40,015 bases of DNA. Source: Clostridia bacterium (lineage in GTDB: Bacteria > Bacillota > Clostridia > Christensenellales > UBA1242). Each line of letters starts with the position of its first letter. Positions within the stretch are counted from its first letter, which is position 1. The position numbers and the translations under genes are program-made. The notes below the pieces were generated by a model that saw nothing but the letters and a program-made list of their open reading frames with translations, was not told the origin of the DNA and did no database searches. The stretch is taken from contig JAFQUU010000032.1 in the NCBI GenBank assembly GCA_017408305.1, forward strand, positions 1 to 40,015. Direction: 5' to 3'. This document shows, piece by piece, positions 2,766 to 19,456 of the stretch.

Positions 2766-2788
2766 AATTATTGTCAATATTATGTGCA

Positions 2789-2843: not shown

Positions 2844-2871
2844 GCCAATGTCTAACAAAAGGAGAGCATTT

Positions 2872-3237: not shown

Positions 3238-3246
3238 TTGTGGTGC

Positions 3247-3275
3247 TTGACAAGCCACTTTTTTTATGCTAAACT
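3247..3275 (+). promoter_or_regulatory. rpsO promoter
   Basis: TTGACA (3247-3252), 17-nt spacer, TGcTAAACT extended -10 (3267-3275). Confidence 0.6.
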
Positions 3276-3455: not shown

Positions 3456-3710
3456 ATGAGAGAAAAAAGCGAAATTATCAGCGAATTCAAAATCAATGAA
3501 AAAGACACTGGCTCAACACAAGTGCAGATTGCTATCTTGACTGAAAGAATTAGACACCTTACTGAACACCTTAAAGTGAACAAGAAAGACAATCACTCAC
3601 GCCGTGGACTTTTGAAGATGGTTGGTCATCGCAAAAATCTTTTGAACTATCTTAAGAAAAAAGATTTGGATGCTTATAAAGACCTTAAAGCCAAACTTCA
3701 AATCAGATAG
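3456..3710 (+). CDS. rpsO: 30S ribosomal protein S15
   Basis: '[47 protein letters not shown]'. ATG 3456 follows AGGGGAAGGA. The upstream 27 codons of track ORF 3375 are leader. Confidence 0.95.
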
Positions 3711-3743
3711 GCTTGCCAGCGACAAAGGCTTCGCTAAATAAAA

Positions 3744-3777
3744 GTGCTACTTCAAAATTGGAAGTAGCCTTTTTTTA
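3744..3777. terminator. Bidirectional terminator between rpsO and murG
   Basis: gctacttc/gaagtagc stem (3746-3768) with an A-run on the left and a T-run on the right. Confidence 0.75.
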
Positions 3778-4830: not shown

Positions 4831-4902
4831 ACTAATATTATATACATAAACACTCGAAATATGTTTTGGCATATTGGCTCAATCTCTTTCATAAGATGAA
4901 GT

Positions 4903-5643: not shown

Positions 5644-5690
5644 TTGACAAACGCCTTTTTGTGTGGTAAGATTTTGGCATGAGGGAACAA

Positions 5691-6827
5691 ATGATATTTT
5701 TAGATAACGCAAGCACCACATCACTTTGCAAAAGTGGCGTGGAAAATCTTTTGAAATACAGTCAAGAACTGTTTTACAACCCAAGTGCAAGTTATTCAGT
5801 GGGTTTTGAAAATTACAAGCAAATTCAGGGTGTTAAGGCTCTTCTTGCCAAAAAACTTGGCGTGGAGTTTAAAAACAATATTATTTTTACTGGCAGTGCA
5901 ACAGAAGCAACCAATCTTGCCATTTTTGGCAGTTACAGAAAAAACTGGAAAAAAGCAGTTTTTTCAGCAGGGGAGCATCCATCAGTATATAACTGTTCCC
6001 TTGAACTTGAGGCAAGAGGGGTGAAGGTTGAATTTGTTGACCTTGACCAAAGTGGTGCAGTGGACCTTGAAAAATTATCTAAGGCACTTGATGAAGATGT
6101 TGCGTTTTTGTCAATCATGCAAGTCAGCAACGAAACTGGTGCAATAAACAACCTTGAAAAGATTTTTGCCCTAAAACAGCAAAAATGTAAGAACGCAATA
6201 TTCCATGTGGACGGCGTGCAGGCATTTGGAAAACTTAATGTTGATTTAACAAAATTCAATCCAGATTTTTACACAATCAGTGCACACAAATTTCATGGCC
6301 CTAAAGGCCTTGGTGCTCTTTATGCAAAAAATCCACAGAAACTAAAACCGGTAACGCTTGGTGGAGGACAGGAGTATAACCTTCGCTCTGGCACAGAAAA
6401 TTTGCCAGCGATAATGGCTCTTTATGGGGCACTTAACGAACTAAAAGAAACAGACTTTGCAAGGGTAACAAAAATAAATCAAGCCTTTAAGGAAGAACTT
6501 AAGAAAAACTTAGAGCCTAAGATATCCCTTAAGATTATGGAAGGTGAAAATTTTTCGCCGTATGTAATGAGTCTTAGTTTTAAAGGGATTAAAGGGGAAG
6601 TTCTTCAAAATCTTTGCGATAGTCAAGGGCTTTTAATCAGCACTGGCAGTGCCTGTTCTTCTAAAAAAAGTGGCAATAGGATTTTGGAAAATATTGGCCA
6701 TACTCAAGAAGAGATTGTTGGTAGCATAAGGGTAAGTTTTTCAAGAGAAACAACACTTGAAGAGGCACTTGAAGGTGCCAATATCTTGGCAAACTGCACA
6801 AACACACTTTGGAGGAACACAAGATGA
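5691..6827 (+). CDS. Cysteine desulfurase (NifS/IscS-type, PLP-dependent)
   Basis: 'SAHKFHGPKG' PLP-lysine motif and active-site 'STGSACSS'. ATG 5691 follows GAGGGA. Stop overlaps the thiI start (ATGA at 6824-6827). Confidence 0.9.
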   Translation: MIFLDNASTTSLCKSGVENLLKYSQELFYNPSASYSVGFENYKQIQGVKALLAKKLGVEFKNNIIFTGSATEATNLAIFGSYRKNWKKAVFSAGEHPSVYNCSLELEARGVKVEFVDLDQSGAVDLEKLSKALDEDVAFLSIMQVSNETGAINNLEKIFALKQQKCKNAIFHVDGVQAFGKLNVDLTKFNPDFYTISAHKFHGPKGLGALYAKNPQKLKPVTLGGGQEYNLRSGTENLPAIMALYGALNELKETDFARVTKINQAFKEELKKNLEPKISLKIMEGENFSPYVMSLSFKGIKGEVLQNLCDSQGLLISTGSACSSKKSGNRILENIGHTQEEIVGSIRVSFSRETTLEEALEGANILANCTNTLWRNTR

Positions 6828-8017
6828 AAAATGTAATTCTTCTTCGCTATGGCGAGATACATTTAAAGGGTAAAAACAGAGGTTTTTTTGAAAACGCACT
6901 TTTCCAAAACCTAAAAAACAGCCTTGAGGGGATAAACTGCAAAATTTCAAGGATTGCAGGCAGATATTTGGTTTCAGAATTTGAAGAAAAGGATATAAAA
7001 CTTATCACAGAAAAATGCCAAAAGGTGTTTGGGTTTGTGTCGTTAAGCCATGCTATGGAAGTTGAAACAAGTGAAGAAAATATTGTTTTGGCAGTTAAAA
7101 CTTTGATGGGCGAAGTTGAAAAAAATAGTGCTAAAGAAGTTATAACTTTCAAGGCAAAAACCAAGCGTGCTGATAAATCTTTCCCCGTAAAGAGTGATGA
7201 TTTTTCTGCATTTTTGGGCGAAGTAGTGCTAGACAATTTCAAGATTTTTAAGGTTAAACTTTCAGACTACGATATTGAACTTAATGTTGACATTCGCGAA
7301 AACGGCAAAACCTATGTTTTTTGCGACAAGGTTAATTGCCTTGGTGGCATGCCGGTTGGCACAGCAGGCAAGGGGCTTTTGATGCTTTCAGGTGGCATTG
7401 ACAGCCCAGTGGCTGGCTATATGATGGCAAAGCGTGGCCTAAAACTTTTTGCAATGCATTTTCACAGTTTTCCATACACCAGTTTGCAGGCTCGTGAAAA
7501 AGTGCTTTCTCTTGCAGAAATCTTAACTGATTACACCGGTGGAGACCTAACAGTCTTTATGGTGCCATTTACAAAAGTGCAAGAGGCAATCCACCAAAAA
7601 TGCGATAGTGCGTATATGATAAACATAATGCGTAGAATTATGTTTAGGATTGCTGAACGCGTTGCAGAGAAAAACAATATTCAAACAATTGTTACTGGGG
7701 AAAATTTAGGACAAGTTGCAAGCCAAACCATAGAAAGTTTGACAAATACAAACAGTGTGATGGATGTTATTCCTGTTATGAGGCCACTTATCGCTTTTGA
7801 CAAACTTGATATAATAAAAATTTCCAAAGAAATTGGCACATTTGAAACTTCAATTTTGCCATACGAAGATTGTTGCACTGTTTTCTTACCAGACAATCCA
7901 ATCATTAAACCAAGTATAAAAAACAGCCAAAAACAAGAAAAATTCTTGGATATTGAGAATTTAATTCAAGAAGCAATTGAAAACATAGAAATCGTAAAAA
8001 TAAAACCAAAAAAATAA
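6824..8017 (+). CDS. thiI: tRNA 4-thiouridine synthase ThiI (no rhodanese domain)
   Basis: 'LRYGEIHLKGKNR' N-terminus and PP-loop 'LSGGIDSPVA'. GGAGGA lies 7 nt upstream of ATG 6824. Confidence 0.9.
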   Translation: MKNVILLRYGEIHLKGKNRGFFENALFQNLKNSLEGINCKISRIAGRYLVSEFEEKDIKLITEKCQKVFGFVSLSHAMEVETSEENIVLAVKTLMGEVEKNSAKEVITFKAKTKRADKSFPVKSDDFSAFLGEVVLDNFKIFKVKLSDYDIELNVDIRENGKTYVFCDKVNCLGGMPVGTAGKGLLMLSGGIDSPVAGYMMAKRGLKLFAMHFHSFPYTSLQAREKVLSLAEILTDYTGGDLTVFMVPFTKVQEAIHQKCDSAYMINIMRRIMFRIAERVAEKNNIQTIVTGENLGQVASQTIESLTNTNSVMDVIPVMRPLIAFDKLDIIKISKEIGTFETSILPYEDCCTVFLPDNPIIKPSIKNSQKQEKFLDIENLIQEAIENIEIVKIKPKK

Positions 8018-8077: not shown

Positions 8078-9811
8078 ATGAAACAAAAACAGCCACTTTC
8101 AAATTTTGATTTAAATCAAAAATTGTTTTGTTTTCCACTGTTTGTGGGGTTGTTTTGTCAAATGGACAAAAAATGTGTTTGTTGTTATGTTGATAAAAAA
8201 AGTGGTGAAATAAAATTAAAATCTTTTAACGCAAAAAACAGTTTGTTTTATCATGCTGGTATTCCTATTTTGCGAGGTATAGAATTTTTTGTTTTTTCAA
8301 TTATTAGTTATTTTCAAACGCTTAAAATTTTTGCATGGCATAGAAAATCTATCAATGCAGAAAAAGAAAGCCTTGATATCTTAAAAAAAACTTTGCTTGT
8401 GATTGGGATTGCAATTTTAATGGTAATAGGTGCCCTGTTTGTTGGGTGGGGAATTTTTGGGACACTTCCAAGCAAAATTGGGTTTTGGATTTTTCCAAAC
8501 AACTACAGTCCCGTTTTAAAAAAATTTTGTATTGCACTTGTTCGGCTTGCACTAATTGTCCTACTAATTTTAACGCTTTGGTTTGTGCCAAAATTTAAGG
8601 CACTTTGCAGGTTTAACACAGCAGGGAATATTACAATAAAAGGCAAAAATTTTTCTTCATTAAACTTTTTTAATGTTGTATCTCTTGCTTTACTCATAGA
8701 TGTTTTTGTGGTAACATTATTAGGGCTTACAGGAAATTTTTTACTTATCTTTCTTGTAAATATTGTTTTGTTTTTGCTGGCAAGTGGAGTGAGTTTTGAA
8801 ATTTGCTTGTTTCAAGAAAAAAAAGGTGGTTTGTTAGAAAAACTTTGTATGCTGACAAGTTTTTTGTTTTTCAGCCCTTGTGGTAAAACGGAAAAACAGG
8901 TGGCAAATGGCGTTATAATGGAGTGTGAACTTATGAAAAATGAAGATAGGGTATTGCTTGAAGAAAATGATTTGGGTCATGGAGAGGTGGCACTTGCGTT
9001 TGTGCTTGCAGATGTAAAAAATGCTTTAAAAAAAGCAGGCATTGAAGATTTTGGTGAGGCTGAGTGGCTGGTTGCAAATGTTTTGGGTGTTAAAAAACTT
9101 GACATAAGATTTGTAAAAGCCGTTACCTCTCAGGAAAAAAGAAAAATAGATATGGCACTTGAAAGGCGTCTTAATCACGAACCAATTGACAAAATTTTTG
9201 GGTTTACAGAGTTTTATGGTTTAAAATTTAAGGTAAATAAAAATGTTTTATCGCCAAGGCAAGAAACTGAACTTCTTGTTGAAAATGTCCTAAAAGAAAT
9301 TGAAGGAAAAAAAGTGCGTGTCCTTGATTTATGCACAGGCAGTGGTGCAATTGCAATTTCAGTTGCTAAGCACTCTCAGGCCGAAGTTTTGGGGGTAGAT
9401 ATAAGTGAAAGTGCATTAAGCATTGCAAAGTTTAATGCCGAAAACTTAGGGGCAAATGTAAAATTTAAGCATTCTGATATGTTTTCAAAACTTGGAAGAA
9501 ACAAGTTTGACATTATTGTCAGCAATCCTCCATACATCAAAACCAACGAAATTGAATTACTAGAAAAAGAAGTTAAGAACTTTGACCCCAGAATTGCACT
9601 TGATGGTGGCGAAGATGGTCTTTACTTTTATCGCTTAATTGCAAGCCTTGCACCAATGCACCTTAAACCAAAAGGCAAACTTTTTTTGGAAATTGGGTTT
9701 AGGCAGGGTACAAAACTAAAAAAACTATTGACAGAGAACTTTGAAAATATTAAAATACTAAAAGATTATGAGGGTAAACAACGAATTGTTGTTGCTACAA
9801 AAAAAGGATAA
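8078..9811 (+). CDS. prmC: In-frame fusion: degenerate DUF1385 (YqhQ-like) membrane domain plus release-factor glutamine N5-methyltransferase PrmC
   Basis: C-terminal half has 'LDLCTGSGAIAI' and 'VSNPPYI'. N-terminal ~285 aa has 'IPILRGIEFF' and 'VSFEICLF' like DUF1385, but 'RFNTAGNITIKG' replaces the family's 'YHGAEHK'. No stop codon separates the two parts. Confidence 0.8.
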   Translation: MKQKQPLSNFDLNQKLFCFPLFVGLFCQMDKKCVCCYVDKKSGEIKLKSFNAKNSLFYHAGIPILRGIEFFVFSIISYFQTLKIFAWHRKSINAEKESLDILKKTLLVIGIAILMVIGALFVGWGIFGTLPSKIGFWIFPNNYSPVLKKFCIALVRLALIVLLILTLWFVPKFKALCRFNTAGNITIKGKNFSSLNFFNVVSLALLIDVFVVTLLGLTGNFLLIFLVNIVLFLLASGVSFEICLFQEKKGGLLEKLCMLTSFLFFSPCGKTEKQVANGVIMECELMKNEDRVLLEENDLGHGEVALAFVLADVKNALKKAGIEDFGEAEWLVANVLGVKKLDIRFVKAVTSQEKRKIDMALERRLNHEPIDKIFGFTEFYGLKFKVNKNVLSPRQETELLVENVLKEIEGKKVRVLDLCTGSGAIAISVAKHSQAEVLGVDISESALSIAKFNAENLGANVKFKHSDMFSKLGRNKFDIIVSNPPYIKTNEIELLEKEVKNFDPRIALDGGEDGLYFYRLIASLAPMHLKPKGKLFLEIGFRQGTKLKKLLTENFENIKILKDYEGKQRIVVATKKG

Positions 9812-9815: not shown

Positions 9816-10892
9816 ATGTTTATTGAAACAACTAAAAAATTTAAAGAACGCTATGATGAACTGACAGACCTGATTATGAAGCCTGAAATTATCGCTGATA
9901 ACAAGGAGTGGAAAAAACTTGTTAAAGAAAGAAGTGGCCTAGAAGAAATTGCAAACAGCCATGTGGAGTATGAAAAAGCCCTTCTTGACAAAAAGGGTAT
10001 GGAGGAAACCATTGCCACAGAAACTGACCCTGAAATGAAAAAGTTTTTTGAAGAAGAACTGTATGAACTTAATGGCAAAATCTCACAAATGGAAGAGGAA
10101 ATAAAAATTCTTCTTCTTCCAAAAGATGAAAACGATAGTTCAAACGTTATTATGGAAATTAGGGCAGCAGCAGGAGGCGAAGAAAGTGCACTTTTTGGCG
10201 TTGAGCTTTTGAATATGTACAGGCGTTATGCCGAACGCCAACGTTGGCAAGTTGAAATGATTGATATTTCTGAAACCGAACTTGGTGGCATTAAGGAATG
10301 CACATTTATGATTAAAGGCAAAAATGTGTATAAAAACCTTAAGTTTGAAAGTGGCGTGCATAGGGTGCAAAGGGTTCCTGAGACTGAATCTCAAGGCCGT
10401 GTGCATACTTCAACCACAACTGTTGCTGTGCTTCCTGAAATGGAAGAGGTGGATTTTGAAATTCAGGAAAAAGACCTTCGCATTGACACATATCGTGCAA
10501 GTGGGGCAGGTGGCCAGCATGTTAACAAAACAGACAGTGCAATCCGTATGACTCATATACCAACAGGCATTGTGGTTTGCTGTCAGGATGAACGCAGTCA
10601 ACTTAAAAACCGTGAACGAGCAATGAATATCATGAAAAGTAAACTTCATGACTTTTATCAAAACCAAATTACAAGCGAGTATAAAGAAAATCGTCGCAGT
10701 CAAATTGGAAGTGGCGATAGAAGCGAACGCATAAGGACATACAACTTCCCACAGGGCAGAATAACTGACCATCGCATCAATTTTTCAATGTACAGTATGT
10801 CAAGTTTCCTTGATGGAGATATTCAAGAAATGATTGATGAACTGCTCCGTGCAGACCAAAAACTAAAACTTGAAGAAGCAAGTGGTAAATAA
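9816..10892 (+). CDS. prfA: Peptide chain release factor 1
   Basis: 'SGAGGQHVNKTDSAIRMTHIPTG' (GGQ) and 'RVPETESQGR' (PxT). ATG 9816 lies just after the prmC stop. Confidence 0.95.
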   Translation: MFIETTKKFKERYDELTDLIMKPEIIADNKEWKKLVKERSGLEEIANSHVEYEKALLDKKGMEETIATETDPEMKKFFEEELYELNGKISQMEEEIKILLLPKDENDSSNVIMEIRAAAGGEESALFGVELLNMYRRYAERQRWQVEMIDISETELGGIKECTFMIKGKNVYKNLKFESGVHRVQRVPETESQGRVHTSTTTVAVLPEMEEVDFEIQEKDLRIDTYRASGAGGQHVNKTDSAIRMTHIPTGIVVCCQDERSQLKNRERAMNIMKSKLHDFYQNQITSEYKENRRSQIGSGDRSERIRTYNFPQGRITDHRINFSMYSMSSFLDGDIQEMIDELLRADQKLKLEEASGK

Positions 10893-11309: not shown

Positions 11310-11338
11310 AGTGGCTTGCGAAACAAGTCACTTTTTTT
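11310..11338. terminator. Bidirectional terminator (GNAT / 285-aa gene)
   Basis: agtggcttg-cgaaa-caagtcact stem-loop, A-run before and T-run after. Confidence 0.7.
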
Positions 11339-12194
11339 ACAAACTTTTGTCCAAATCTTCTTCAGGTGAAAATCCATTTAGAAGCTTTTCGCAATACTCT
11401 GAAATAAACTGTGATGCATTTACGGCGTTATCAAAACTTTGCGAGATGTGCTGGCGATTTTCATCTTCTCCTGCAATAAAATGCACTGTGCAGTTTGGCA
11501 AGTTGTGGTTTACATACTTCGCATAAGCATTAACAATATCAACACAACCTTCCAAAAATGCCACTGCAAAAGTGGAAGACACAAAAAATGGTTTTTGAAA
11601 TTTATCATTTAAAATGTCAATTTGCAAAATTGTTGGCTCTTTGTCGCCTTCTTGAAGATTAATTTCATTTTCAATAAAAAATTTTTTAAACAAACTTTCT
11701 TCTTTGCCACAAGAAATTGTATTGCGATAGTCCCTTTTTTTAATTCCATTTTTGTTTTTTGCAAAAAAAACAAAATCGCTGTTTGGTGAAGAATAAACTT
11801 TGTGCCCAAATTTTTCTTCCATAATTGTTTGGATTTCTACAATGTTTTTTGCAACCTTATTAATGTGTTTATCCAAAAGTTTGGTGCCATAGATGCTCTT
11901 GTCGTTTTCCATCATATAATTTAAGATATTTTTGTATGCAAACCACTTTCCAAATAAAATTCTGCCTTGTGGGTCGCTTACAATATCAAAATTTCTTGCA
12001 TCATAAGCAAAGTTGTTTTTTTGCGAGTTAAGATAGTCCAAATCACTATTAATTAAAAATTCTTCCTGAAGTGTTGCAGGTTGATTAAGTGTTGCAGGTG
12101 TAATTTCAAAAGTTTGGTCATAAAAACCTTGTGATTTTTCTAAAAATGCATCAGCATCTAATTTTTGCTTTTTTCTAAATAGCCCAAATGCCAT
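11337..12194 (-). CDS. Hypothetical protein, 285 aa, no recognised domain
   Basis: Long ORF with AGGAGA SD. Promoter TTGACA (complement of 12238-12243), 17 nt, TATAAC (complement of 12215-12220). Confidence 0.6.
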   Translation of the reverse strand: MAFGLFRKKQKLDADAFLEKSQGFYDQTFEITPATLNQPATLQEEFLINSDLDYLNSQKNNFAYDARNFDIVSDPQGRILFGKWFAYKNILNYMMENDKSIYGTKLLDKHINKVAKNIVEIQTIMEEKFGHKVYSSPNSDFVFFAKNKNGIKKRDYRNTISCGKEESLFKKFFIENEINLQEGDKEPTILQIDILNDKFQKPFFVSSTFAVAFLEGCVDIVNAYAKYVNHNLPNCTVHFIAGEDENRQHISQSFDNAVNASQFISEYCEKLLNGFSPEEDLDKSL

Positions 12195-12264
12195 AGTAAA
12201 TTCTCCTGACTTTTGTTATATCACAGGTTTGAAAGGTTGTCAATAAATAAAAAAAGCCCAAGAT

Positions 12265-12801
12265 TTAAGGCTCTTTGATTATGATTTTTGCGTTAATAAA
12301 ATTGATTTGTCTATGCTGTTGGTGTCTAAGTTCTGGTCTTCGAAAACATAAAAGGTCAAACGCTTCCCACACAAACACCCAAGAAAAAATGCTAATTGCC
12401 CCTTGCACAACAACCAAAATTTCTTTAAAGGTTAGGACAAGTGAAATTGTTAAAGTGCATAGGCCAATAAAAAGTGTAATTAATGCAAACCAAATATAGT
12501 TTTTCAGTTTTCTTTCGCTTTCAACAAATTCGTTATAATAGTAGTTTTTGATTGCAGTGGATATGGTTTCGTGGTCATACTTTTTTGTTGTGATTTCAAG
12601 GGTTAAGTCTTCCTTGATTGGCACATCTTTTACTGCGTTTTCCAAAAATTCAGCAAAATCGCCACTAATCACTTTTTGGTTGTTTTCTGCAAATGGCGAA
12701 ATCACATTTTTGCTATCATTAAGCGAAATTTGCACAGGGTTTGATGGTGGACTTACCCTATTTTTTTTAAGATTTCTTTTTGCTTTTCCGTACTTTGTCA
12801 T
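12265..12801 (-). CDS. Hypothetical membrane protein, 178 aa, two C-terminal TM helices
   Basis: ATG 12801 follows AGGAGA. Promoter TTGCAA (12844-12849), 17 nt, TATACT (12821-12826), minus strand. TM segments 'IWFALITLFIGLCTLTISLVLTF' and 'GAISIFSWVFVWEAFDLLCF'. The track extension to 12999 runs through the tRNA and is an artefact. Confidence 0.6.
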   Translation of the reverse strand: MTKYGKAKRNLKKNRVSPPSNPVQISLNDSKNVISPFAENNQKVISGDFAEFLENAVKDVPIKEDLTLEITTKKYDHETISTAIKNYYYNEFVESERKLKNYIWFALITLFIGLCTLTISLVLTFKEILVVVQGAISIFSWVFVWEAFDLLCFRRPELRHQQHRQINFINAKIIIKEP

Positions 12802-12863
12802 ATTTTCTCCTGATATTTTCAGTATAACAGTCCAAAAAGCAAATTGCAAATTTTTGGCAATAA

Positions 12864-12892
12864 AAAAACAAACCCGAATGGTTTGTTTTTTT
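12864..12892 (-). terminator. Terminator downstream of tRNA-Glu
   Basis: Minus strand aaacaaacc-attcg-ggtttgttt followed by a T-run. Confidence 0.6.
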
Positions 12893-12896
12893 AGAT

Positions 12897-12971
12897 TGGT
12901 ACTCCTAAGGGGAATCGAACCCCTGATTCCACCGTGAGAGGGTGGCGTCTTAACCGCTTGACCATAGGAGC
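12897..12971 (-). tRNA. tRNA-Glu (anticodon CUC), CCA encoded
   Basis: Reverse complement GCTCCTATGGTCAAGCGGTTAAGACGCCACCCTCTCACGGTGGAATCAGGGGTTCGATTCCCCTTAGGAGTACCA folds as a cloverleaf: 7-bp acceptor with G1-U72, D-loop AAGCGGTTAA, anticodon stem CCACC/GGTGG with loop CUCUCAC, T-arm AGGGG-TTCGATT-CCCCT. Confidence 0.85.
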
Positions 12972-12987
12972 ATATATTTATAAAAAT

Positions 12988-13016
12988 ATTATACCACAAA
13001 CCTTTGAGTTTTGCAA
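12988..13016 (-). promoter_or_regulatory. Promoter of tRNA-Glu
   Basis: Minus strand TTGCAA, 17 nt, TGgTATAAT. The -10 ends about 16 nt upstream of the mature 5' end. Confidence 0.6.
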
Positions 13017-13102
13017 GGGTATTTTAAAAAAATTAGTGAGTTTTTGATTTTGTTTGACTTTTTGAAGTGCGTTTAATATATTTATATCAAAGGGGGTGGA
13101 AT

Positions 13103-13291
13103 ATGTTTAGGTTTGGGACAGGTTTTGGAATTCTTGAATGTCCGTTAAGTGAATTTTTTAATGAGGATATTTACGGTGAAGATGCAAATCAAGACAAAGA
13201 AGAAACGCTTGAAAATATAAAATTTTCAAACAAAAAAAAGCTAAAATACCTAAAAGTGGCCTTTGAAGAAACGCTTGATATGGAAAGATAG
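13103..13291 (+). CDS. Small protein, 62 aa, 'MFRFG' family copy 1
   Basis: ATG 13103 after AAGGGGG. Promoter TTGACT (13054-13059), 17 nt, TATATT (13077-13082). Paralogous to the next ORF. Confidence 0.55.
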   Translation: MFRFGTGFGILECPLSEFFNEDIYGEDANQDKEETLENIKFSNKKKLKYLKVAFEETLDMER

Positions 13292-13301
13292 GGAGTAGGT
13301 T

Positions 13302-13508
13302 ATGTTTAGATTTGGTTATGGCATTGCACCGTTAAATTGCAAATTAAGTGAATTTAACCACGAAAAAGGTAAACCAACAAATGAACCCGTGAAGCGTAAG
13401 TTTTACAATTCTTATGCGTTTCAAGAAGAACCATTGAAATATAAGAAAAAAAAGAAGTTGAACAGTAAACCAAAAACTTTTGAAGAAGAATTTGATGTGG
13501 AGAGATAA
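13302..13508 (+). CDS. Small protein, 68 aa, 'MFRFG' family copy 2
   Basis: Shares 'MFRFGxG....C.LSEF' at the N-terminus and 'FEEx.D.ER' at the C-terminus with copy 1. SD GGGAG lies upstream. Confidence 0.55.
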   Translation: MFRFGYGIAPLNCKLSEFNHEKGKPTNEPVKRKFYNSYAFQEEPLKYKKKKKLNSKPKTFEEEFDVER

Positions 13509-13567
13509 AATCTTCTTTTTTTGAATATAATAGATTTTTTTTGAATAGTTTACTTCAAGGAGAATTT

Positions 13568-13933
13568 ATGAATAAACTTGATAAAATCCATAAAGAACTA
13601 GATTTTTATACGCAAACAGGCTTGGCGATTAAACTCAACTCTTTACGTGCGGCAAGAGCAAGCCTAAAAATTGATACAGTCAAGTATTCAATTGTTGGAG
13701 CGAGTGTTGGATTGTTTGGTGGCGTGGGAGAGTTTTTGCTTGCAAGTAGGATTGAGGATTGGAATTGTATTCTTTCGCCTGCAGAGTTTGGGCTTGCAGT
13801 TGGGGGCACCGCTTTTATTTGCATAAGTGCTGTGCCTATAGGCTGTTATTTGTTTCACAAACGCAAATTTTTAAAAAATTATGAAAAAAACAAGGATATT
13901 AAAATTCCACTTGGTGATGAATTAAAAATGTAG
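13568..13933 (+). CDS. Small membrane protein, 121 aa, two TM helices (holin-like topology)
   Basis: ATG 13568 after AAGGAGA. TM segments 'YSIVGASVGLFGGVGEFLLAS' and 'FGLAVGGTAFICISAVPIGCYLF', with a basic C-terminal tail. Confidence 0.55.
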   Translation: MNKLDKIHKELDFYTQTGLAIKLNSLRAARASLKIDTVKYSIVGASVGLFGGVGEFLLASRIEDWNCILSPAEFGLAVGGTAFICISAVPIGCYLFHKRKFLKNYEKNKDIKIPLGDELKM

Positions 13934-13968
13934 GGAATATTTTTGGTGTTTTTTGCAAAAATCATGTT

Positions 13969-14373
13969 ATGAATAAAAATAAGATAGAGAAATTTTTCAG
14001 TGTTGCAGAAAAATATCTTGGTTTCCCGTATGTTTGGGGTGGTGAAAGTCCAAAAACATCTTTTGATTGCTCGGGGTTTATATACTGGGTAATGAAAAAG
14101 GCAAAACTTGGAAGAGCAAAAAGACTTACCGCCCAAAAAATTTTTTACAAGTTGTGCTATAAAATCAAAACCTGTGAAATACAAAGGAGAGACTTTCTTT
14201 TTTTTGAAAAAACATATAAAACTAATAGGCGAATAACACATGTTGGTGTGTATGCTGGAGAGGGGCTTATGCTTCATTGTGGTTCAAAAAATGGCGTTGA
14301 ATATGTGGATTTAAAATCTTCGCCCTTAAAAAACAATTTTTATTGTGCAGGTCGCCCTAAAATGTTCTTATAA
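13969..14373 (+). CDS. NlpC/P60 (C40) cell-wall peptidase, catalytic domain only, no signal peptide
   Basis: 'YVWGGESPKTSFDCSGFIYWV' (catalytic Cys) and 'ITHVGVYAGEGLMLHC' (His). Confidence 0.8.
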   Translation: MNKNKIEKFFSVAEKYLGFPYVWGGESPKTSFDCSGFIYWVMKKAKLGRAKRLTAQKIFYKLCYKIKTCEIQRRDFLFFEKTYKTNRRITHVGVYAGEGLMLHCGSKNGVEYVDLKSSPLKNNFYCAGRPKMFL

Positions 14374-14375
14374 AA

Positions 14376-14405
14376 AATCGCCACTTCGATAGTGAAGTGG
14401 CGATT
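14376..14405. terminator. Hairpin repeat A1 (bidirectional terminator)
   Basis: Perfect 12-bp stem aatcgccacttc/gaagtggcgatt, loop gatagt, flanked by A6 and T4. Confidence 0.8.
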
Positions 14406-14714
14406 TTATTTTTCATGTTCTTGCTCTAATGAGTTTAAGTTCTTCAAGTGTTTTGCAAGGTTTTTATTTCTAATATTTATTACTGATTGTTTAAGTTTGG
14501 AAAACTTTGGTAAGTCTATGCCAGGCACAAAAACACAGCACCAATTACGCCTGTATGTTCTTGCACCTTTCTCAACCCCCTCGGCTTTTTGCATACTTTT
14601 AAAGTCTTTCCACCAGCTATAACCTTCACGAATTTTACCATTGCCTAAAAGATAAATTTTATTAGTTTCGAAATTTAATCTACCTATTTTCATGCCACCT
14701 GAACCACCTGGCAT
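14406..14714 (-). CDS. Small basic protein, 102 aa, 'KIGRRP' family copy 1 (long form)
   Basis: AAGGAGG SD. Promoter TTGACA (14767-14772), 17 nt, TATAAT (14744-14749), minus strand. Paralogous to 14825..15127, 15227..15397 and 15436..15615. Confidence 0.7.
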   Translation of the reverse strand: MPGGSGGMKIGRLNFETNKIYLLGNGKIREGYSWWKDFKSMQKAEGVEKGARTYRRNWCCVFVPGIDLPKFSKLKQSVINIRNKNLAKHLKNLNSLEQEHEK

Positions 14715-14794
14715 AATATTTACCTCCTTTCTGCTTTGACTATATTATATTTTGAGAGAAGAAAATTGTCAAACAAATTAAATCACATAGCAAA

Positions 14795-14824
14795 AATCAC
14801 TACTTCGATAGTGAAGTGGCGATT
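14795..14824. terminator. Hairpin repeat A2
   Basis: Same hairpin as A1 with two changes in the left arm (one mismatch, one G-T pair). Lies directly after the stop of copy 2. Confidence 0.7.
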
Positions 14825-15127
14825 TTATTTTTCATGTTCTTGCTCTAATGTGTTTAAGTTTTTCAAGTGCTTTGCAAGGTTTTTATTTCTAATATTTATT
14901 ACTGACTGTTTAAGTTTGGAAAACTTTGGTAAGTCTATGCCAGGCACAAAAAGACAACACCAATTGCGCCTGCCAGTTGTTGCACCTTTTTCAATCCCCA
15001 AACCTTTTCGCATACTTTTATTTTCTTTAAGCCAATCATAATCATCACGAATTTTAGCGTTACCTAAAAGCCCCATTTTCTTAGTTTCAAAGTTAAGGGT
15101 TCCCATAGGCCTTCTTCCAATTTTCAT
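14825..15127 (-). CDS. Small basic protein, 100 aa, 'KIGRRP' family copy 2 (long form)
   Basis: AAGGAGA SD. Promoter TTGACT (15177-15182), 18 nt, TATAAT (15153-15158), minus strand. The C-terminal 44 aa differ from copy 1 at 2 positions. Confidence 0.7.
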   Translation of the reverse strand: MKIGRRPMGTLNFETKKMGLLGNAKIRDDYDWLKENKSMRKGLGIEKGATTGRRNWCCLFVPGIDLPKFSKLKQSVINIRNKNLAKHLKNLNTLEQEHEK

Positions 15128-15193
15128 AATGTCTCCTTTTGTATTTTTAAGTATTATACGATAATAGTGTATGAAAAGTCAACAATATAGCAA

Positions 15194-15223
15194 AAATCGC
15201 CACTTCGATAGTGAAACAGCGTT
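15194..15223. repeat. Hairpin repeat A3 (decayed copy)
   Basis: Left arm and loop identical to A1 (aatcgccacttc gatagt). Right arm mutated (gaaacagcgttt), so the stem is largely lost. Confidence 0.6.
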
Positions 15224-15226
15224 TGA

Positions 15227-15397
15227 TTACCAGTCATTTCTGCGAGATTTGGCATCTTTAGCAATACCCTTGCCTTTTGCCATTCTTTCGTTTTCTTTAA
15301 ACCAATCGTAGTCGTCCCTTAAAGGGGTGTTGCCAAAAAGGTAAATCCTTTTTGTTTTAAAACCCAAAGGACCAGTAGGTCTTCTTCCAATTTTCAT
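15227..15397 (-). CDS. Small basic protein, 56 aa, 'KIGRRP' family copy 3 (short form; absent from the ORF track)
   Basis: Hand translation: MKIGRRPTGPLGFKTKRIYLFGNTPLRDDYDWFKENERMAKGKGIAKDAKSRRNDW*. An in-frame ATG two codons upstream (15403) is also possible. Weak SD AAGAGAG. Probably co-transcribed with copy 4. Confidence 0.6.
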   Translation of the reverse strand: MKIGRRPTGPLGFKTKRIYLFGNTPLRDDYDWFKENERMAKGKGIAKDAKSRRNDW

Positions 15398-15435
15398 ACT
15401 CATCTCTCTTTTTCAGTTTCATAATTATTTTATAA

Positions 15436-15615
15436 CTACCAGTCATTTCTGCGAGATTTGGCATCTTTAGCAATACCCTTGCCTTTTGCCATTCTTTCGT
15501 TTTCGTTAAACCAATCGTAGTCGTCCCTTAAAGGTGTGTTTCCCATAGTATATATTTTTTTTGTTTTGAAATCCAAACTGCCCGTAGGTCTTGTTCCAAT
15601 TTTGCAACCCGGCAT
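15436..15615 (-). CDS. Small basic protein, 59 aa, 'KIGRRP' family copy 4 (short form; absent from the ORF track)
   Basis: Hand translation: MPGCKIGTRPTGSLDFKTKKIYTMGNTPLRDDYDWFNENERMAKGKGIAKDAKSRRNDW*. SD AAGGAGGAAGG. Promoter TTGACT (15659-15664), 17 nt, TATAAT (15636-15641), minus strand. Confidence 0.65.
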   Translation of the reverse strand: MPGCKIGTRPTGSLDFKTKKIYTMGNTPLRDDYDWFNENERMAKGKGIAKDAKSRRNDW

Positions 15616-15745
15616 ATTCCTTCCTCCTTATATCAATTATACTCATGATAATTTATATAGTCAATCGAAATCTCAAAAAACACTGGTTTTATTGACTTTG
15701 GGACTTTTATTTGTTATTCATTTAATAATGAAGGAGCAGAAGGTT

Positions 15746-16123
15746 ATGTTTACTTTTTTGGTTGATTTAACATTAAGGTTTCCTGAAGATGTAAACCTTG
15801 ATGAGATTGAAAGAATTTTGGGCATGAAAGCAACAAGTAAGAAAACAAAAAAAGAATCAAAAAGCAAAAACAAATTTGCACGCATAAGTTTTTACACATC
15901 ACGCAAAAGAAGCACTAATCCCTCACAAGTGCTTGAAGACTTTTTGCTTAAAATTCACGAGAATATAAAAAAAGTTCCAGAAATCCTAAAAAAATATAAT
16001 GGAAGGGCATATCTTTGCCTAATCATGAATTTCTCTGAGTATGTGCCTACAGTTTTTCTATCTCAAACAGTTATTGATATTCTTTCAGAGTGCAAAATAG
16101 AATTTGACCTGGACTTTATGTAA
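15746..16123 (+). CDS. Hypothetical protein, 125 aa, resembles the DUF4279 pattern
   Basis: ATG 15746 after AAGGAG (ATG 15728 is also possible). Layout 'F.F...L.F.ED..LDEIERILGMKAT...' and ending '..IEFDLDFM' recalls DUF4279, from memory only. Track start 15536 overlaps copy 4 on the opposite strand. Confidence 0.45.
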   Translation: MFTFLVDLTLRFPEDVNLDEIERILGMKATSKKTKKESKSKNKFARISFYTSRKRSTNPSQVLEDFLLKIHENIKKVPEILKKYNGRAYLCLIMNFSEYVPTVFLSQTVIDILSECKIEFDLDFM

Positions 16124-16145
16124 AAGCCAATAACTGTTTAACGCA

Positions 16146-16179
16146 AAAATCGCTATTCCACTATGGGAATAGCGATTTT
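16146..16179. terminator. Hairpin repeat B1 (bidirectional terminator)
   Basis: 14-bp stem aaaatcgctattcc/ggaatagcgatttt with a 6-nt loop. Part of the 38-nt perfect repeat 16139-16176. Confidence 0.8.
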
Positions 16180-16180
16180 A

Positions 16181-17326
16181 TTATTTTTCTTGTTCAAAAT
16201 TTTGCCTTTGGTTGTCAGTTAATGATTTCCGCAAAACAGACTTCTTAAGTTGTTTAAGTTTAGTAAATTTAAACATATTAGATTGTTTTTCTTGTTTTTC
16301 CTCAAAGTCTTTAATTTTTTTATCAAGTTCGGGAATTGAGTGGTTGCAAAGTGCCAACAATTTTTGAAGTTTTTTGTTTTGTATGTAACATTCTTGTTCC
16401 CAATGATTTTTCAATATACATTTTGGAAATTTTTTAGGGTTATATTTTTCTTCATGAACATTGTAATGATATACTTTAACATTTTCTATAATTTGCTGAG
16501 GGATAGGGCATCCTAATTCAATAAGCTCAGCAATTGTGGAGCTTGCAAGCAAATAACAATATTCGTAATGGAAAGCATATGAATCTTTTAATTTTTGTTT
16601 ATTGCAAAAATAAGAATACAGTGTAATCTCATTGTCAAGATACCTTGGATAAGGAAGTCCATTCCTTGTAAACCAACTGATTGTGTCTAAATTAATTCCT
16701 ATAATCTTCAACGCCTTTTCTTCAAATGTATGTATTACTGGCATCTTGATTCCTACGGTTTTCGCCAGCATAACTTCTTCGGTTGTATAATAAGAATTTT
16801 CTTTTGCCTTTACCTTTCTTTGTTTGTTTCTTGCTAAAAGAAATTTTGTTATGTCTTTAGAAATTAGTTCTGCATCTTTTTTCCAACCATATTTCCTATA
16901 AGACCTTAAAATACTTACGTTGTGATAATATCGACATTCACAGTAATTTTCTCTAATGCTTTTTTCTTGTTCGGTTTGTTTAACTTTAGGTCCATATGCA
17001 TTTCTAAAAAGTTGCAATTGTTGATATGGCGAAAATTGTTCTTTAACAAAAGCTGGAATGCTGTTTATACTTTCCACAAAACCACTTTTTGCTGGTTCTC
17101 CGTATAAAGTTATGATTTGTTGATAATGCCTCATTCCAGAATCTTCATCATAAAAACTTACTGTTACGCCACCGTATTGGTCCTTATAATAAACAGTATC
17201 CAACTTATCAAATGGCTGAAAGCCTCTTCTTACGATTTTATCGCCTGTTGCAAGTTCTAGATAGTAAATGGTGGTATCATCTTTTTCGTTTGGGTCTTTT
17301 TCCCTGATTTCTTCAAAGTAATGCAT
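16181..17326 (-). CDS. Hypothetical protein, 381 aa, no recognised domain; K/Q/E-rich C-terminal tail
   Basis: GGAGA SD. Promoter TTGACA (17377-17382), 17 nt, TATACT (17354-17359), minus strand. The gene plus its promoter are bracketed by the B1/B2 repeats. Confidence 0.65.
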   Translation of the reverse strand: MHYFEEIREKDPNEKDDTTIYYLELATGDKIVRRGFQPFDKLDTVYYKDQYGGVTVSFYDEDSGMRHYQQIITLYGEPAKSGFVESINSIPAFVKEQFSPYQQLQLFRNAYGPKVKQTEQEKSIRENYCECRYYHNVSILRSYRKYGWKKDAELISKDITKFLLARNKQRKVKAKENSYYTTEEVMLAKTVGIKMPVIHTFEEKALKIIGINLDTISWFTRNGLPYPRYLDNEITLYSYFCNKQKLKDSYAFHYEYCYLLASSTIAELIELGCPIPQQIIENVKVYHYNVHEEKYNPKKFPKCILKNHWEQECYIQNKKLQKLLALCNHSIPELDKKIKDFEEKQEKQSNMFKFTKLKQLKKSVLRKSLTDNQRQNFEQEK

Positions 17327-17385
17327 TTTTTATTCTCCGTAAATTGTGATAAAAGTATAAATCAAATTTAAAAATTTGTCAATAG

Positions 17386-17423
17386 TAACGCAAAAATCGC
17401 TATTCCACTATGGGAATAGCGAT
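17386..17423 (-). terminator. Hairpin repeat B2 (terminator in the minus direction only)
   Basis: 38 nt identical to 16139-16176. On the minus strand the stem is followed by TTTTTG; on the plus strand it is followed by atatgatg, with no T-run. Confidence 0.7.
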
Positions 17424-17431
17424 ATGATGCT

Positions 17432-17538
17432 ATTGTAGGGTCGTGATGGCTGAAACCACTTAACTAGTGGGTGCCTTCTCCTTATCAAAGGAGGGTTGTT
17501 CCACAAGGCTTTGATAGCCTTGGGATGTGCCCTACAGT
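17432..17538. ncRNA. Unclassified 107-nt cloverleaf-like structured element (strand uncertain)
   Basis: Closing stem 17432-17440/17530-17538 (9 bp). Three internal hairpins: 17448-17475 (ggc..ccact-taact-agtgg..gcc), 17476-17495 (ttctcc-ttatcaaa-ggaggg) and 17501-17524 (cc-a-caaggct-ttgat-agccttg-gg). No convincing ORF. Confidence 0.35.
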
Positions 17539-17589
17539 TATATATTGTGCAGGAATTTTTGTTTTATGCAAACTTTTTAAAAAAATTTT

Positions 17590-18540
17590 TTATCTTTCCC
17601 TTTTGCCATTTTTTACATCTTCGATTATTTCATCTAAAGATTGAAATTCTCTGCGAATTCTGTCTTTCGCTAATTTAAATTTAAGTTTTAATTTTGAGTA
17701 TTTAAGGTTTGATTTTCTTTGGAACTTTTTTATAGTTTCAAGGTTTGAACAACTGATAATTTGGTTTGTTAGGTCTTTGTATTTGAAAAACAATTCTTTT
17801 TGTGCTCTGGTTGGCATATAATACAGTTTTTGATTTTTAGTACAATCACGTCGTGGTTGGCCAGGGTCTTTTTGGAAGCCAAGTTCTGTTATAGCCTTAT
17901 TAATTGAGTTGGTTTGAAGGCCCATAAGTTTTAGGTCAATTGCCATTTTGCAAAGAATTTTTGCATCAAAATGATACATCCCTTCAAGAGGAGTGTATTC
18001 GTAAGATGGTTTTATTAGTTCTTGGGCACCTATAATGGTTTTTGAGTTTACATAGTAAGGTTCAAAAGGCAAAACCTTGTGAGTTGTTCTTGCAAAAAGG
18101 GTTTGGGTGTACTTTTCTGTAAATAATTGCAAATCTTGTTTTGTAAAAATGTTTTTCTCAGTTTCGCAATTTTTTGTCATAAATTTCCATGCTAAAAGTA
18201 AAGTGTCTTCGTGAGGTTTAACAAATGAAGACTGAAGATAAAGTGAACTTGTTGAAATATAACAAAGTGTTGTTTCATCGCAAAATTTTTGCATATACAA
18301 ATCCAAAAAGTGTGAAAACAAATTATTTTGTTTTGAGTTTTCCATGAGTGGAATAATCTGCTTTGGGTTATAAGAATCTATATAATCACTTTTATCAATA
18401 TTTTTTATATTGGTTTCTGGTGGCAGGTTTTGAATTTTTTGAAGTTTCTTGTAAAGTTGCTTGGCTGAAATAAGCCCGTCATGATAATCTTCAAGGCCTT
18501 GTTCAAAATCTTCATATAATTCACGAGGTATTTTTTGCAT
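17590..18540 (-). CDS. Hypothetical protein, 316 aa, paralogue of the next gene
   Basis: ATG 18540 ('MQKIPREL') lies 6 nt after AAGGAG. Track start 18567 has no SD. Shares '..FTKxDLQxFxxKYxxTLFARTTH...GMYxxD..IL...PG.P.....QKL.YMPT..QKELF.KY..LT' with 18611..19405. Confidence 0.65.
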   Translation of the reverse strand: MQKIPRELYEDFEQGLEDYHDGLISAKQLYKKLQKIQNLPPETNIKNIDKSDYIDSYNPKQIIPLMENSKQNNLFSHFLDLYMQKFCDETTLCYISTSSLYLQSSFVKPHEDTLLLAWKFMTKNCETEKNIFTKQDLQLFTEKYTQTLFARTTHKVLPFEPYYVNSKTIIGAQELIKPSYEYTPLEGMYHFDAKILCKMAIDLKLMGLQTNSINKAITELGFQKDPGQPRRDCTKNQKLYYMPTRAQKELFFKYKDLTNQIISCSNLETIKKFQRKSNLKYSKLKLKFKLAKDRIRREFQSLDEIIEDVKNGKRER

Positions 18541-18610
18541 TTGTTTCTCCTTAGGCTCAAATAACATATGCTTCGGTTTTTGTCAAGCAAATAAACTTTT
18601 TTAAAAATTT

Positions 18611-19405
18611 TTAAAGATTTTTTTCTTGTTCTTTTTCAAGAAATTTTTGCTTGTATCTTTCCATATATTCTTTTTCTTTTTTCCTTCTTTGATAAGCCTT
18701 TTCTATTCCTTCGGCTAAGGTTGGAAATGGGCAATACTTTTGTGCAAAACGCTGTAGTTTATGTTTGCGTCTTGTTAATTTTGCGTGTTCTTTTTTTCTC
18801 AACATACTAACTGTTTCTGGCGTAGGGAAAGCGATAATGTGCTTGGTAAGTTCACGGTATTTAAGAAACAATTCTTTTTGCTGATAGGTTGGCATGTATT
18901 GAAGTTTTTGAGGTCTTGTAAAATCAAATTTTGGCTCGCCTGGGTCAACTTGAAAACAAAGGTTATTAATTGCTTTTTCTATGCTTTGTAGTTTTAAACC
19001 ATGATTTGCTAGTTCAGAGGCCATATAAAACAAAATTCTTACATCATGATAATACATACCACTAAGGGCTTCGTAAAACCAAAAGGGTTGAACCAGTTCT
19101 TTTCCGCCTACAATTGTGTCAGATTTAACCCAATAAGGTTCTTCCGTATATAAAGGATGAGTTGTCCTTGCAAAAAGTGTTTCAACATATTTATCTACAA
19201 AATATTGCAGGTCTCTTTTAGTAAAATAGTTTCCATTTTTTTCACAATTAAATGCCCAGAAACGCCACTTAGAAAGCAGGGCTTCTTCATAAGGTGCAAC
19301 AAAAGACCTTCTAACTTTCAAGCCACCATTATCGTGCTTTGTTGTGGTATCGTGGCAAAATTCTTCTAAATATTTGTCAAGTTCAGAGTGTGTTTCTTTC
19401 ATCAC
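18611..19405 (-). CDS. Hypothetical protein, ~264 aa, paralogue of the previous gene
   Basis: Start uncertain: GTG 19405 (9 nt after AAAGGA) or ATG 19402. The track start (TTG 19456) is the first three bases of a TTGACA -35 box. Confidence 0.6.
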   Translation of the reverse strand: MMKETHSELDKYLEEFCHDTTTKHDNGGLKVRRSFVAPYEEALLSKWRFWAFNCEKNGNYFTKRDLQYFVDKYVETLFARTTHPLYTEEPYWVKSDTIVGGKELVQPFWFYEALSGMYYHDVRILFYMASELANHGLKLQSIEKAINNLCFQVDPGEPKFDFTRPQKLQYMPTYQQKELFLKYRELTKHIIAFPTPETVSMLRKKEHAKLTRRKHKLQRFAQKYCPFPTLAEGIEKAYQRRKKEKEYMERYKQKFLEKEQEKNL

Positions 19406-19427
19406 TGTCAAATGTCCTTTAACATTT

Positions 19428-19456
19428 TGTATATCAAGAATATATTTTTTTGTCAA
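19428..19456 (-). promoter_or_regulatory. Promoter of the 264/316-aa paralogue pair
   Basis: Minus strand TTGACA (19451-19456), 17 nt, TATACA (19428-19433). Confidence 0.55.

Follow-up and report, generated by a model that had tools for sequence, protein, structure and literature searches.

The stretch of DNA considered here, called the window throughout, comprises 40,015 nucleotides (nt) of contig JAFQUU010000032.1 (assembly GCA_017408305.1) and comes from an uncultured animal-gut bacterium of the Clostridia that is Christensenellales-like. An island of about 8 kb (11337-19456) lies between two blocks of housekeeping genes, with prmC-prfA-GNAT to its left and typA-nusA-infB-rbfA to its right; it holds 14 open reading frames (ORFs), o1 to o14, together with a gene for tRNA-Glu(CTC). 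The guanine-plus-cytosine (GC) content is 0.30-0.35 in the island and 0.36-0.42 in the flanks. The original prediction, which had been made from the letters without database searches, described the region as a run of self-contained and partly duplicated gene cassettes, possibly forming one functional system. It listed 14 ORFs, and all of them were found where it had placed them. The features are collected in Table 1. Coordinates are those of the window, and the loci of relatives carry the labels L001, L006, L087, L095 and so on.

Table 1. Genes, structured RNAs and hairpins of the island (lengths in amino acids, aa; SD, Shine-Dalgarno sequence; N-, amino-terminal)
Feature	Coordinates	Strand	Description
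o1	11337..12194	-	285 aa, acidic orphan, own transcription unit; family searches empty
o2	12265..12801	-	178-aa membrane protein; hydrophobic block at residues ~99-153
tRNA-Glu(CTC)	12897..12971	-	found by ARAGORN and Rfam; own promoter and terminator
o3	13100..13291	+	MFRFG peptide 1, 63 aa from the MFRFG start; heads the putative o3-o6 operon
o4	13302..13508	+	MFRFG peptide 2, 68 aa; ends ..FDVER
o5	13568..13933	+	121 aa; two transmembrane segments, charged C-terminus
o6	13969..14373	+	134-aa NlpC/P60 (C40) cell-wall endopeptidase domain, without signal peptide
hairpin A1	14374..14407		bidirectional terminator common to o6 and o7; rearrangement breakpoint
o7	14406..14714	-	102 aa, small basic; KIGR N-domain, K-rich tail ending LEQEHEK
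hairpin A2	14793..14826		o8 terminator
o8	14825..15127	-	100 aa, o7 paralogue
hairpin A3	15193..15224		terminator of the o10-o9 unit
o9	15227..15403	-	58 aa; KIGRRP domain alone, without tail
o10	15436..15615	-	59 aa, o9 paralogue; heads the o10-o9 unit
o11	15746..16123	+	125-aa DUF4279 (FdL-Imm5) protein
hairpin B1	16146..16179		bidirectional terminator of o11 and o12; breakpoint
o12	16181..17326	-	381-aa Tyr-rich orphan; most polymorphic cassette
hairpin B2	17396..17423		terminator of the RNA, edge of the o12 cassette; breakpoint in L001 and L006
RNA	17430..17537	-	candidate structured small RNA between o13 and the o12 promoter; missed by the original prediction
o13	17590..18567	-	325-aa orphan; probable start 18540, giving 316 aa
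o14	18611..19456	-	281-aa o13 paralogue; probable start 19405, giving 264 aa

Only two of the 14 ORFs match a Pfam family, o6 (NlpC/P60) and o11 (DUF4279), and these are the two folds that had been recognised by eye. Scans of the island ORFs with PHROGs, PADLOC and NCBIfam added only matches of the P60 type. The integrases, transposases, ATPases, helicases and defence markers said to be missing were indeed not seen in these family searches. Pfam and NCBIfam scans of the same ORFs gave no nuclease, helicase, NTPase, TIR or SIR2 domain, nor any spore or coat, S-layer, pilus or flagellar family. The Pfam check for recombinases covered the island ORFs, their left-hand neighbours and the region 29.5-39 kb, leaving out for example 31-8017, 25.6-29.5 kb and 38980-39765; no recombinase domain was present in the ORFs scanned. 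Searches of the PDB by sequence came back empty.

The three sets of paralogues that had been proposed are all borne out by BLASTP. The peptides o3 and o4 are 39% identical (E 6e-11), the small basic proteins form the pairs o7/o8 (77%), o9/o10 (87%) and o8/o9 (59%), and o13 and o14 share 40% identity (E 5e-66). The last two had been described as proteins of 316 and 264 residues; the pair is real, and its longest ORFs encode 325 and 281 residues. Most island proteins are basic, and o12-o14 are rich in Tyr and contain Cys. Hydropathy places transmembrane segments in o2 and o5 only, and no island protein has an evident signal peptide. The true gene of o11 is probably the 125-residue frame that starts at 15746, as called in the relatives; the longest ORF, of 195 residues, overlaps o10.

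The island is rich in strong promoters. Five sites agree with the consensus at 11 or more of its 12 positions, compared with 0.42 +/- 0.59 in Markov simulations (maximum 2, n=200). They lie 20-29 nt upstream of o1, o7 (12/12), o8 (11/12), o10 (11/12) and o12, and matches at 10/12 positions precede o3, o14 and tRNA-Glu. All are of the vegetative sigma-A type and not of the sigma-E, -K or -G type. The o1 unit carries the promoter TTGACA-17-TATAAC, an SD and a hairpin terminator. About 12 transcription units are read in the island: o1; o2; tRNA; o3-o4-o5-o6; o7; o8; o10-o9; o11; o12; RNA; o13; and o14. Two of them, o3-o4-o5-o6 and o10-o9, look like operons; o5 and o6 are separated by 35 nt with no terminator between them, and o9, which has no promoter of its own, begins 32 nt after o10. 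The view that most of the genes have their own promoter thus stands as regards the enrichment of promoters but has to be amended for these two units, and the description of the region as a set of self-contained cassettes is supported at the level of autonomous promoter-ORF-terminator units.

The terminator hairpins form, as had been suspected, a family of repeats. It is 43 nt long and has five copies of two subtypes, A and B; hairpin B2 shares 95% identity with the 43-nt repeat at B1. In form the palindromes are AAAA-stem-TTTT, and they score as intrinsic terminators. The promoters of o1 (12237-12245, minus strand), of o12 (17376-17384, minus strand) and of a 156-residue gene found in relatives all start with TATTGACAA. 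In the o12 and 156-residue cassettes this sequence directly follows a hairpin and TTTTTGC, and terminator and next promoter make up one conserved junction module.

Comparison with close relatives reveals both the presence/absence polymorphism and the shuffling of cassettes that the original prediction proposed to look for. In five independent metagenome assemblies the island adjoins typA, and the prfA-GNAT end is reached only in L095. The flank proteins of L095 and L096 are 99-100% identical to those of the window. This locus holds o14, the RNA, a second allele of o12, a 156-residue cassette, o11, o10-o7, o6-o4, a second allele of o3 and the tRNA, followed by an extra 182-residue cassette directly 3' of the tRNA, then o2 (98% identical) and o1 (98.6%); o13 is missing. 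L087 (TypA 99%) has an extra 293-residue paralogue of the o13 type, o14, o13, the RNA and the second o12 allele. L006 has only an o13-like gene (76%), o3, a truncated o4 and the RNA, besides about 260 nt of unrelated DNA; both o14 and o5-o12 are absent. L001, together with L002-L005, represents a different species (flank DNA 79%, TypA 95%). It has three genes of the o13 type and the 156-residue gene, its o12 unit stands between o7 and o6, and two more genes, of 158 and 506 residues, directly follow the 3' end of the tRNA. Its o10 is 98% identical and its o2 64% (synonymous divergence, dS, 2.5), and no o1 homologue was found in the part of L001 that was fetched. The tRNA-Glu keeps the same relative place in L001 and L095 and is a conserved landmark within the island. 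Gene content and gene order conserved as core in relatives, which according to the original prediction would have spoken against a novel locus, were not found: the island belongs to a narrow lineage and varies within it.

The variation also affects the sequence of single genes. The second o12 allele of same-species strains is about 49-55% identical to that of the window (BLAST or global alignment), and the first ~60 residues and the ..EQEK end are kept. The o3 allele of L095 has 59% identity and retains the N-terminus and the ..L-N-M-E-R end, the middle being different. A 327-residue protein of L001 (10001-10984, P0003) is a mosaic, with its N-terminal two thirds nearest o13 and its last ~75 residues nearly identical to the o14 tail, which suggests gene conversion between paralogues. 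The 156-residue gene was considered as the cognate immunity gene of the second o12 allele and rejected, as the two do not co-occur consistently in L087, L095 and L001.

Most of the mapped breakpoints lie in common hairpins or intergenic repeats. The collinear blocks of the window and L001 end in the hairpins A1, B1 and B2 and overlap there by 33-48 nt. The o12 unit that has moved in L001 spans exactly from hairpin to hairpin (17423-16145 of the window), and the 156-residue unit, consisting of promoter, ORF and hairpin, is inserted at hairpin B. Where o13 has been lost (L095) and where o14 has been lost (L006), the junctions map to similar stretches after the stop codons of the paralogues and to their promoters (repeats D9, D11 and D13). 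One end of the large L006 deletion is inside o4 and outside any repeat.

The island genes are under purifying selection. The ratio of nonsynonymous to synonymous divergence (dN/dS), calculated by the Nei-Gojobori method, is 0.05-0.59 in all 13 orthologue pairs of the window and L001 (0.15 for o4, 0.09 for o5 and 0.09 for o6), and the genes are therefore real. That the island is an artefact, made up of spurious ORFs in an AT-rich spacer or of a chimeric metagenome assembly, is scarcely credible. Such an explanation would draw on the AT-richness of the sequence, the shortness of the ORFs and the absence of anything similar from reference genomes, but every gene has a dN/dS well below 1, orthologues are 82-98% identical, the ORFs have SD and promoter signals, and the same arrangement recurs in at least five independent samples.

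Synonymous divergence is far from uniform along the locus. Between the window and L001, dS amounts to 0.77-1.17 in typA, nusA, infB and rbfA and to 0.07-0.33, three to ten times less, in o6-o13; in o5, o4, o3 and o2 it is at or near background. The DNA of the block is 90-93% identical between the two loci and that of the flanks 79%. Compared with L087, nusA has a dS of 0.55 and o13 of 0.016. Since the dS of o6-o13 is well below that of the core flanks, this block has recently moved between species. The reverse is seen against L095, where a background dS of 0.04-0.12 is interrupted by values of 1.05 in o12 and 1.2 in o3; old alleles have therefore been swapped in. The L095 allele of o9 (10213-10389, compared with 15227-15403 of the window) is 90% identical to that of the window with a dN/dS of 0.7, and its C-terminus reads ..KVDKPKRNDW as in the L001 species, in place of ..KDAKSRRNDW in the window, a further sign of exchange across species.

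The position of the tRNA and the nature of o6 raise the question whether the island descends from a mobile element. The o6 protein covers nearly the whole NlpC/P60 profile (PF00877, positions 1-104 of 105, E 2.2e-19, score 69.8 bits with the cutoff at 23), and its translation contains the catalytic Cys motif ..FDCSGF.. and the His motif ..THVGVY... Its closest annotated relatives (43-47% identity) are the C-terminal C40 domains of hydrolases of 660-730 residues encoded beside VirB4 in conjugative plasmids and integrative and conjugative elements (ICEs), and it is also matched by PHROG tail-lysin families. Together with the low GC, the tRNA within the island and the variable cassettes directly 3' of it, this is what would be expected of a decayed or domesticated ICE or prophage remnant, in which o5-o6 would be a leftover hydrolase or lysis pair and the orphans former cargo or early genes. 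Such an origin is nonetheless unlikely. The ORFs scanned with Pfam and PHROGs include no integrase, relaxase, type IV secretion system (T4SS), capsid, tail or terminase gene, and apart from o6 nothing was matched in the searches of PHROGs, INPHARED and IMG/VR. All the genes are under purifying selection and hence not decaying, and in two species the tRNA keeps its position along with its neighbours on either side. A prophage origin was rejected for its part, those three databases having given only generic P60 matches. Site-specific integration at the tRNA-Glu was rejected as well, because the 3' end of the tRNA has no direct repeat elsewhere in the window. With no integrase, no repeat of the tRNA 3' end and breakpoints situated in repeats, homologous recombination between intergenic modules is the process to which the rearrangements point.

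Beyond the close relatives, the island families are exceedingly rare. In 5.8 billion proteins o13 and o12 have three clusters each; a profile of the o13 family finds 15 proteins in 1.84 billion representatives, and the small basic family has 13 clusters. The typA regions of 80 related species, covered to 10 kb from the gene, contain no homologue of any of the 14 ORFs, and the synteny of typA and nusA is itself lost in them. The best GTDB species, a metagenome-assembled genome from water-buffalo caecum, has a TypA 85% identical, and the GTDB representatives contain no match to the island families, also when a narrower profile is used. Searches with tblastn of o1, o12 and o13 against INPHARED (50,697 phage records) gave no match, and when IMG/VR was scanned with o13, o6 and the alignments of o12 and of the small basic family, only generic P60 matches came up. 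The island is confined to one narrow lineage.

Elsewhere, distant members of the o13 family stand in tight tandem pairs, one gene of each of two subtypes, with a conserved third gene after them. In L220 (7578-9937) and L221 (514-2782) the pair is accompanied by a Cys-rich protein of 189-217 residues (..ILCYCLDN..) with no Pfam match, and this third protein has no relative in the island or the window. Another uncultured organism, represented by L092 (8630-11051) and also by L093 and L094, has a run of small orphans between rpsG and fusA. The run encodes a 23S_rRNA_IVP protein, an AAA_28 protein, a distant member of the small basic family of o7-o10 that is 65 residues long (MPGGSGSMKIG..) and an 83-residue protein ending FSKKKLKEKEIEK, and an additional orphan of 138 residues lies between fusA and tuf in L092.

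The candidate structured RNA is predicted to fold into a four-way junction followed by the hairpin B2, with a minimum free energy of -59.4 kcal/mol (z = -7.6). Its L001 variant has the same fold (z = -6.3) with an enlarged third arm, and compensatory changes are seen at four pairs. The RNA is kept in L087, L095, L006 and L001, even in L095, where o13 is absent. It has no match in Rfam at E <= 1. A covariance model finds one weak match (21 bits, E ~ 0.01) in L008 (9724-9825, minus strand), which lies 175 nt upstream of typA in divergent orientation; the TypA of this organism is 82% identical, and the 10 kb on each side of its typA contain no island ORFs. A 15-base pattern of the RNA gave 120 chance matches in public metagenomes; of these, 78 were searched with the covariance model and none was confirmed. 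The four-way-junction RNA is a candidate for a new RNA family.

A further feature links island proteins that are otherwise unrelated. Six of them, from the four families o3/o4, o7/o8, o12 and o13, end in E-[K/R], and in three of these families the end is [DE]-x-E-[K/R] after a K-rich stretch of the K[FY][ST]KLK type. None of the 33 other proteins of the window ends in E-[K/R]. The same ending occurs in no more than 13 of 805 ORFs of at least 200 residues from 80 related loci (1.6%), which gives a binomial P of ~8e-6 for four of nine families. The tail also closes relatives of o12, foreign members of the o13 family (..VDLER, ..IEMEK, ..FTVEK) and the 83-residue orphan of L092 (..KEKEIEK). In o7/o8 and o12 the tails are alike at the DNA level too (repeat D7). 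If the tail is a real targeting signal, it would define a set of proteins that function together and offer a handle for finding more of them.

On this basis the island could be taken for a lineage-specific cell-biological module, whose tailed proteins go to one place or partner (envelope, surface layer or a spore-like structure) and whose variation amounts to surface diversification. Besides the tail common to four unrelated families, the conserved ends and variable middles of o12 and o3 recall flagellins or pilins, o12-o14 are rich in Tyr and contain Cys, the o11-o3 core is stable, and the o13 family occurs elsewhere in fixed tandem pairs. Against this stand the lack of signal peptides, the restriction of transmembrane segments to o2 and o5, promoters of the vegetative type where sigma-E, -K or -G promoters might be looked for, and the failure of the scans to match any coat, S-layer, pilus or flagellar family. 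To our knowledge no known targeting signal resembles the K-rich [DE]-x-E-[K/R] tail. This explanation, too, is improbable.

The pair o5-o6 invites another proposal. Phage-derived lysis cassettes of holin and hydrolase are reused for protein release (PMC13284979, PMC12150058), and the o5-o6 operon looks like such a layout of holin and wall hydrolase; o5 matches no Pfam or PHROG family, those of holins included, and its likeness to holins is one of topology only. One might imagine that the K-rich amphipathic tail is a common sorting signal and o5-o6 the exit route of a polymorphic effector and immunity locus of a novel type, which would release leaderless proteins in the manner of a type 10 secretion system (T10SS) while cassette exchange diversifies the repertoire. 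This idea is very doubtful.

The protein o11 matches PF14106 over positions 2-115 of 116 (E 2e-11, score 44.6 bits with the cutoff at 25). The original prediction had noted a DUF4279-like pattern. This is no unknown fold; the family has been described among the immunity proteins of polymorphic toxins (PMC9424270). Under the name FdL-Imm5 it is paired, for example, with Ntox33 (PMC9424270, PMC13304343). The neighbours of o11 in the island are o10 (divergent) and o12 (convergent), and no toxin is adjacent. Pfam detects no toxin, LXG, Rhs, BetaH or Ntox domain in the 14 ORFs, and no component for secretion or processing (S8 peptidase, type VII secretion system etc.) was found in the island.

Strain-variable and horizontally exchanged content would also suit a single new multi-gene system, serving anti-phage defence or of the toxin-antitoxin type, in which most of the 14 genes work together. 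The abortive-infection (Abi) genes of lactococci are monocistronic, low-GC orphans with consensus and presumably constitutive promoters, and the island genes resemble them. The scan for known systems that the original prediction had called for was run with PADLOC-DB v2 on the island ORFs apart from o3, o4, o9 and o10, and its best E-values, 0.016-0.04, are not significant; a known defence system was accordingly rejected. Nor did the Pfam and NCBIfam scans find a nuclease, ATPase, helicase, NTPase, TIR or SIR2 domain in the island. AlphaFold2 models of o13 (pLDDT 69) and o12 (pLDDT 71, an N-terminal beta domain followed by helices) resemble only generic helical repeats, 14-3-3 and designed proteins in the PDB, with TM-scores <0.3, and the o13 model has no match in BFVD. 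Cassettes are moreover lost or swapped singly, as in L006 and L095, which argues against an obligate multi-gene machine. A single system of this kind is thus quite unlikely, and nothing shows the 14 genes to make up the one functional system considered in the original prediction; a variable accessory island flanked by core genes agrees better with the evidence.

With moderate confidence, the locus can be regarded as such an island: restricted to one lineage, variable between strains, situated at a site flanked by core genes, driven by recombination, exchanged horizontally and possibly involved in microbial conflict. It is made up of about 12 autonomous units, each with a strong promoter of the sigma-A type, an SD, one to four ORFs and a hairpin terminator. 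Units are lost, added, moved or replaced by divergent alleles, and the mapped junctions fall mostly at repeats that the units have in common, namely the 34-43-nt hairpins with TTTTTGC after them, the promoter regions, and stretches of similar sequence that come after the stop codons. The comparisons establish this anatomy, the confinement to one lineage, the polymorphism, the breakpoints and the signals of selection and of transfer. We infer that homologous recombination between these short repeats drives the changes of units, and that whole blocks cross between related species, presumably via recombination in the conserved flanks. The genes may serve microbial conflict, as the orphan immunity gene o11, the o3-o6 operon and the exchanged polymorphic arrays of paralogues would suggest. 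The hints counted in its favour are the FdL-Imm5 protein o11, the maintenance of old o12 and o3 alleles and the lower GC of the island.

Several points weigh against this reading. Of the 14 proteins, o11 alone matches an immunity family, and the island has no toxin, no secretion apparatus and no known defence gene. The fixed tandem pairs and third gene of the o13 family elsewhere look more like a multi-subunit function than like interchangeable immunity alleles. The central part of the island, from o11 to o3, is constant in content and order in the window, L095 and L001, though L006 lacks most of it, and this stability would also be explained by a lineage-specific housekeeping or structural role. 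Recombination between repeats is deduced from the positions of breakpoints in six assemblies, counting the window, and not from direct observation. These are metagenomic assemblies, in which some of the differences could be due to mis-assembly at repeats; L095/L096 and L001/L002-L005 are each backed by independent samples.

Two other parts of the window deserve mention. In a single 577-residue ORF (8078-9811, plus strand) a DUF1385-like membrane region, to which Pfam gives a weak match under its cutoff, is fused with a complete PrmC methyltransferase; the ORF overlaps the start of prfA, and the order is prmC then prfA. A second low-GC stretch (32594-35457, minus strand) contains an S8 subtilase (34333-35457) without a signal peptide, a 380-residue orphan (33157-34299, minus strand) with a PIN-like N-terminus (..FAIDTNVL..) and a repeated LD/ID-L..I.P motif near its end, and a 151-residue protein (32594-33049, minus strand) with two H-x-T motifs, possibly a 2H phosphoesterase. 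The subtilase, at 34.3-35.5 kb and 15 kb off, was considered as a link to the S8 polymorphic-toxin systems (S8-PTS) and rejected; neither it nor the next ORF has a signal peptide.

Several known systems share features with the island. As in integron arrays, its single-gene units end in an imperfect palindrome, and units move and are gained and lost there. In contrast to integrons, no IntI or attI was found around the island, the units have their own promoters (10-12 of 12) and occupy both strands, and the palindromes are intrinsic terminators with A-tract and T-tract, of two sequence types, and not attC sites. An integron was therefore rejected, there being no integrase in the Pfam-scanned ORFs and the palindromes being terminators. 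With the hydrolases of Gram-positive conjugative elements o6 shares 43-47% identity to their C-terminal C40 domain, but it consists of this 134-residue domain alone and has no T4SS gene nearby. The lysis cassettes of the T10SS or TcdE type in C. difficile (PMC13284979, PMC12150058) resemble the pair of o5, with two transmembrane segments and a charged tail, and the signal-less o6 that follows, and also the surrounding proteins without signal peptides. The differences are that o5 matches no holin family and that o6 is nearest to conjugation hydrolases and not to endolysins.

Arrays of orphan or poly-immunity genes of polymorphic toxin systems, such as acquired interbacterial defence clusters or the S8-PTS immunity families (PMC9424270), are comparable in that the island has a DUF4279/FdL-Imm5 gene without a toxin, small cytoplasmic paralogue sets, variation at the level of strains and old alleles that are kept. 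They differ from the island in that here a match to an immunity family is limited to one protein out of 14, toxin, secretion gene and associated recombinase are lacking, and the array is partly stable.

The island is also like the hotspots of horizontal gene transfer flanked by core genes, accessory islets that have no mobility gene, with which it shares its place between core genes, the absence of an integrase, the variation between strains and the signs of exchange by recombination in the flanks. Accessory-gene hotspots have mostly been studied in cultured Proteobacteria and Bacilli and are full of recognisable defence and mobile-element genes. The present one differs in that it belongs to uncultured gut Clostridia, its families are nearly all orphans, several with a common C-terminal tail, and it is built of uniform, self-sufficient promoter-ORF-hairpin units whose common ends are the internal breakpoints. 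These promoter and terminator ends appear to be the substrates of recombination, and blocks cross between species with no visible mobility gene. The kind of locus, a variable island flanked by core genes, is thus already known, and what is new are the protein families, the tail and the RNA. At the minimum, the island is a clean natural case of gene flux at the level of cassettes by way of short intergenic repeats.

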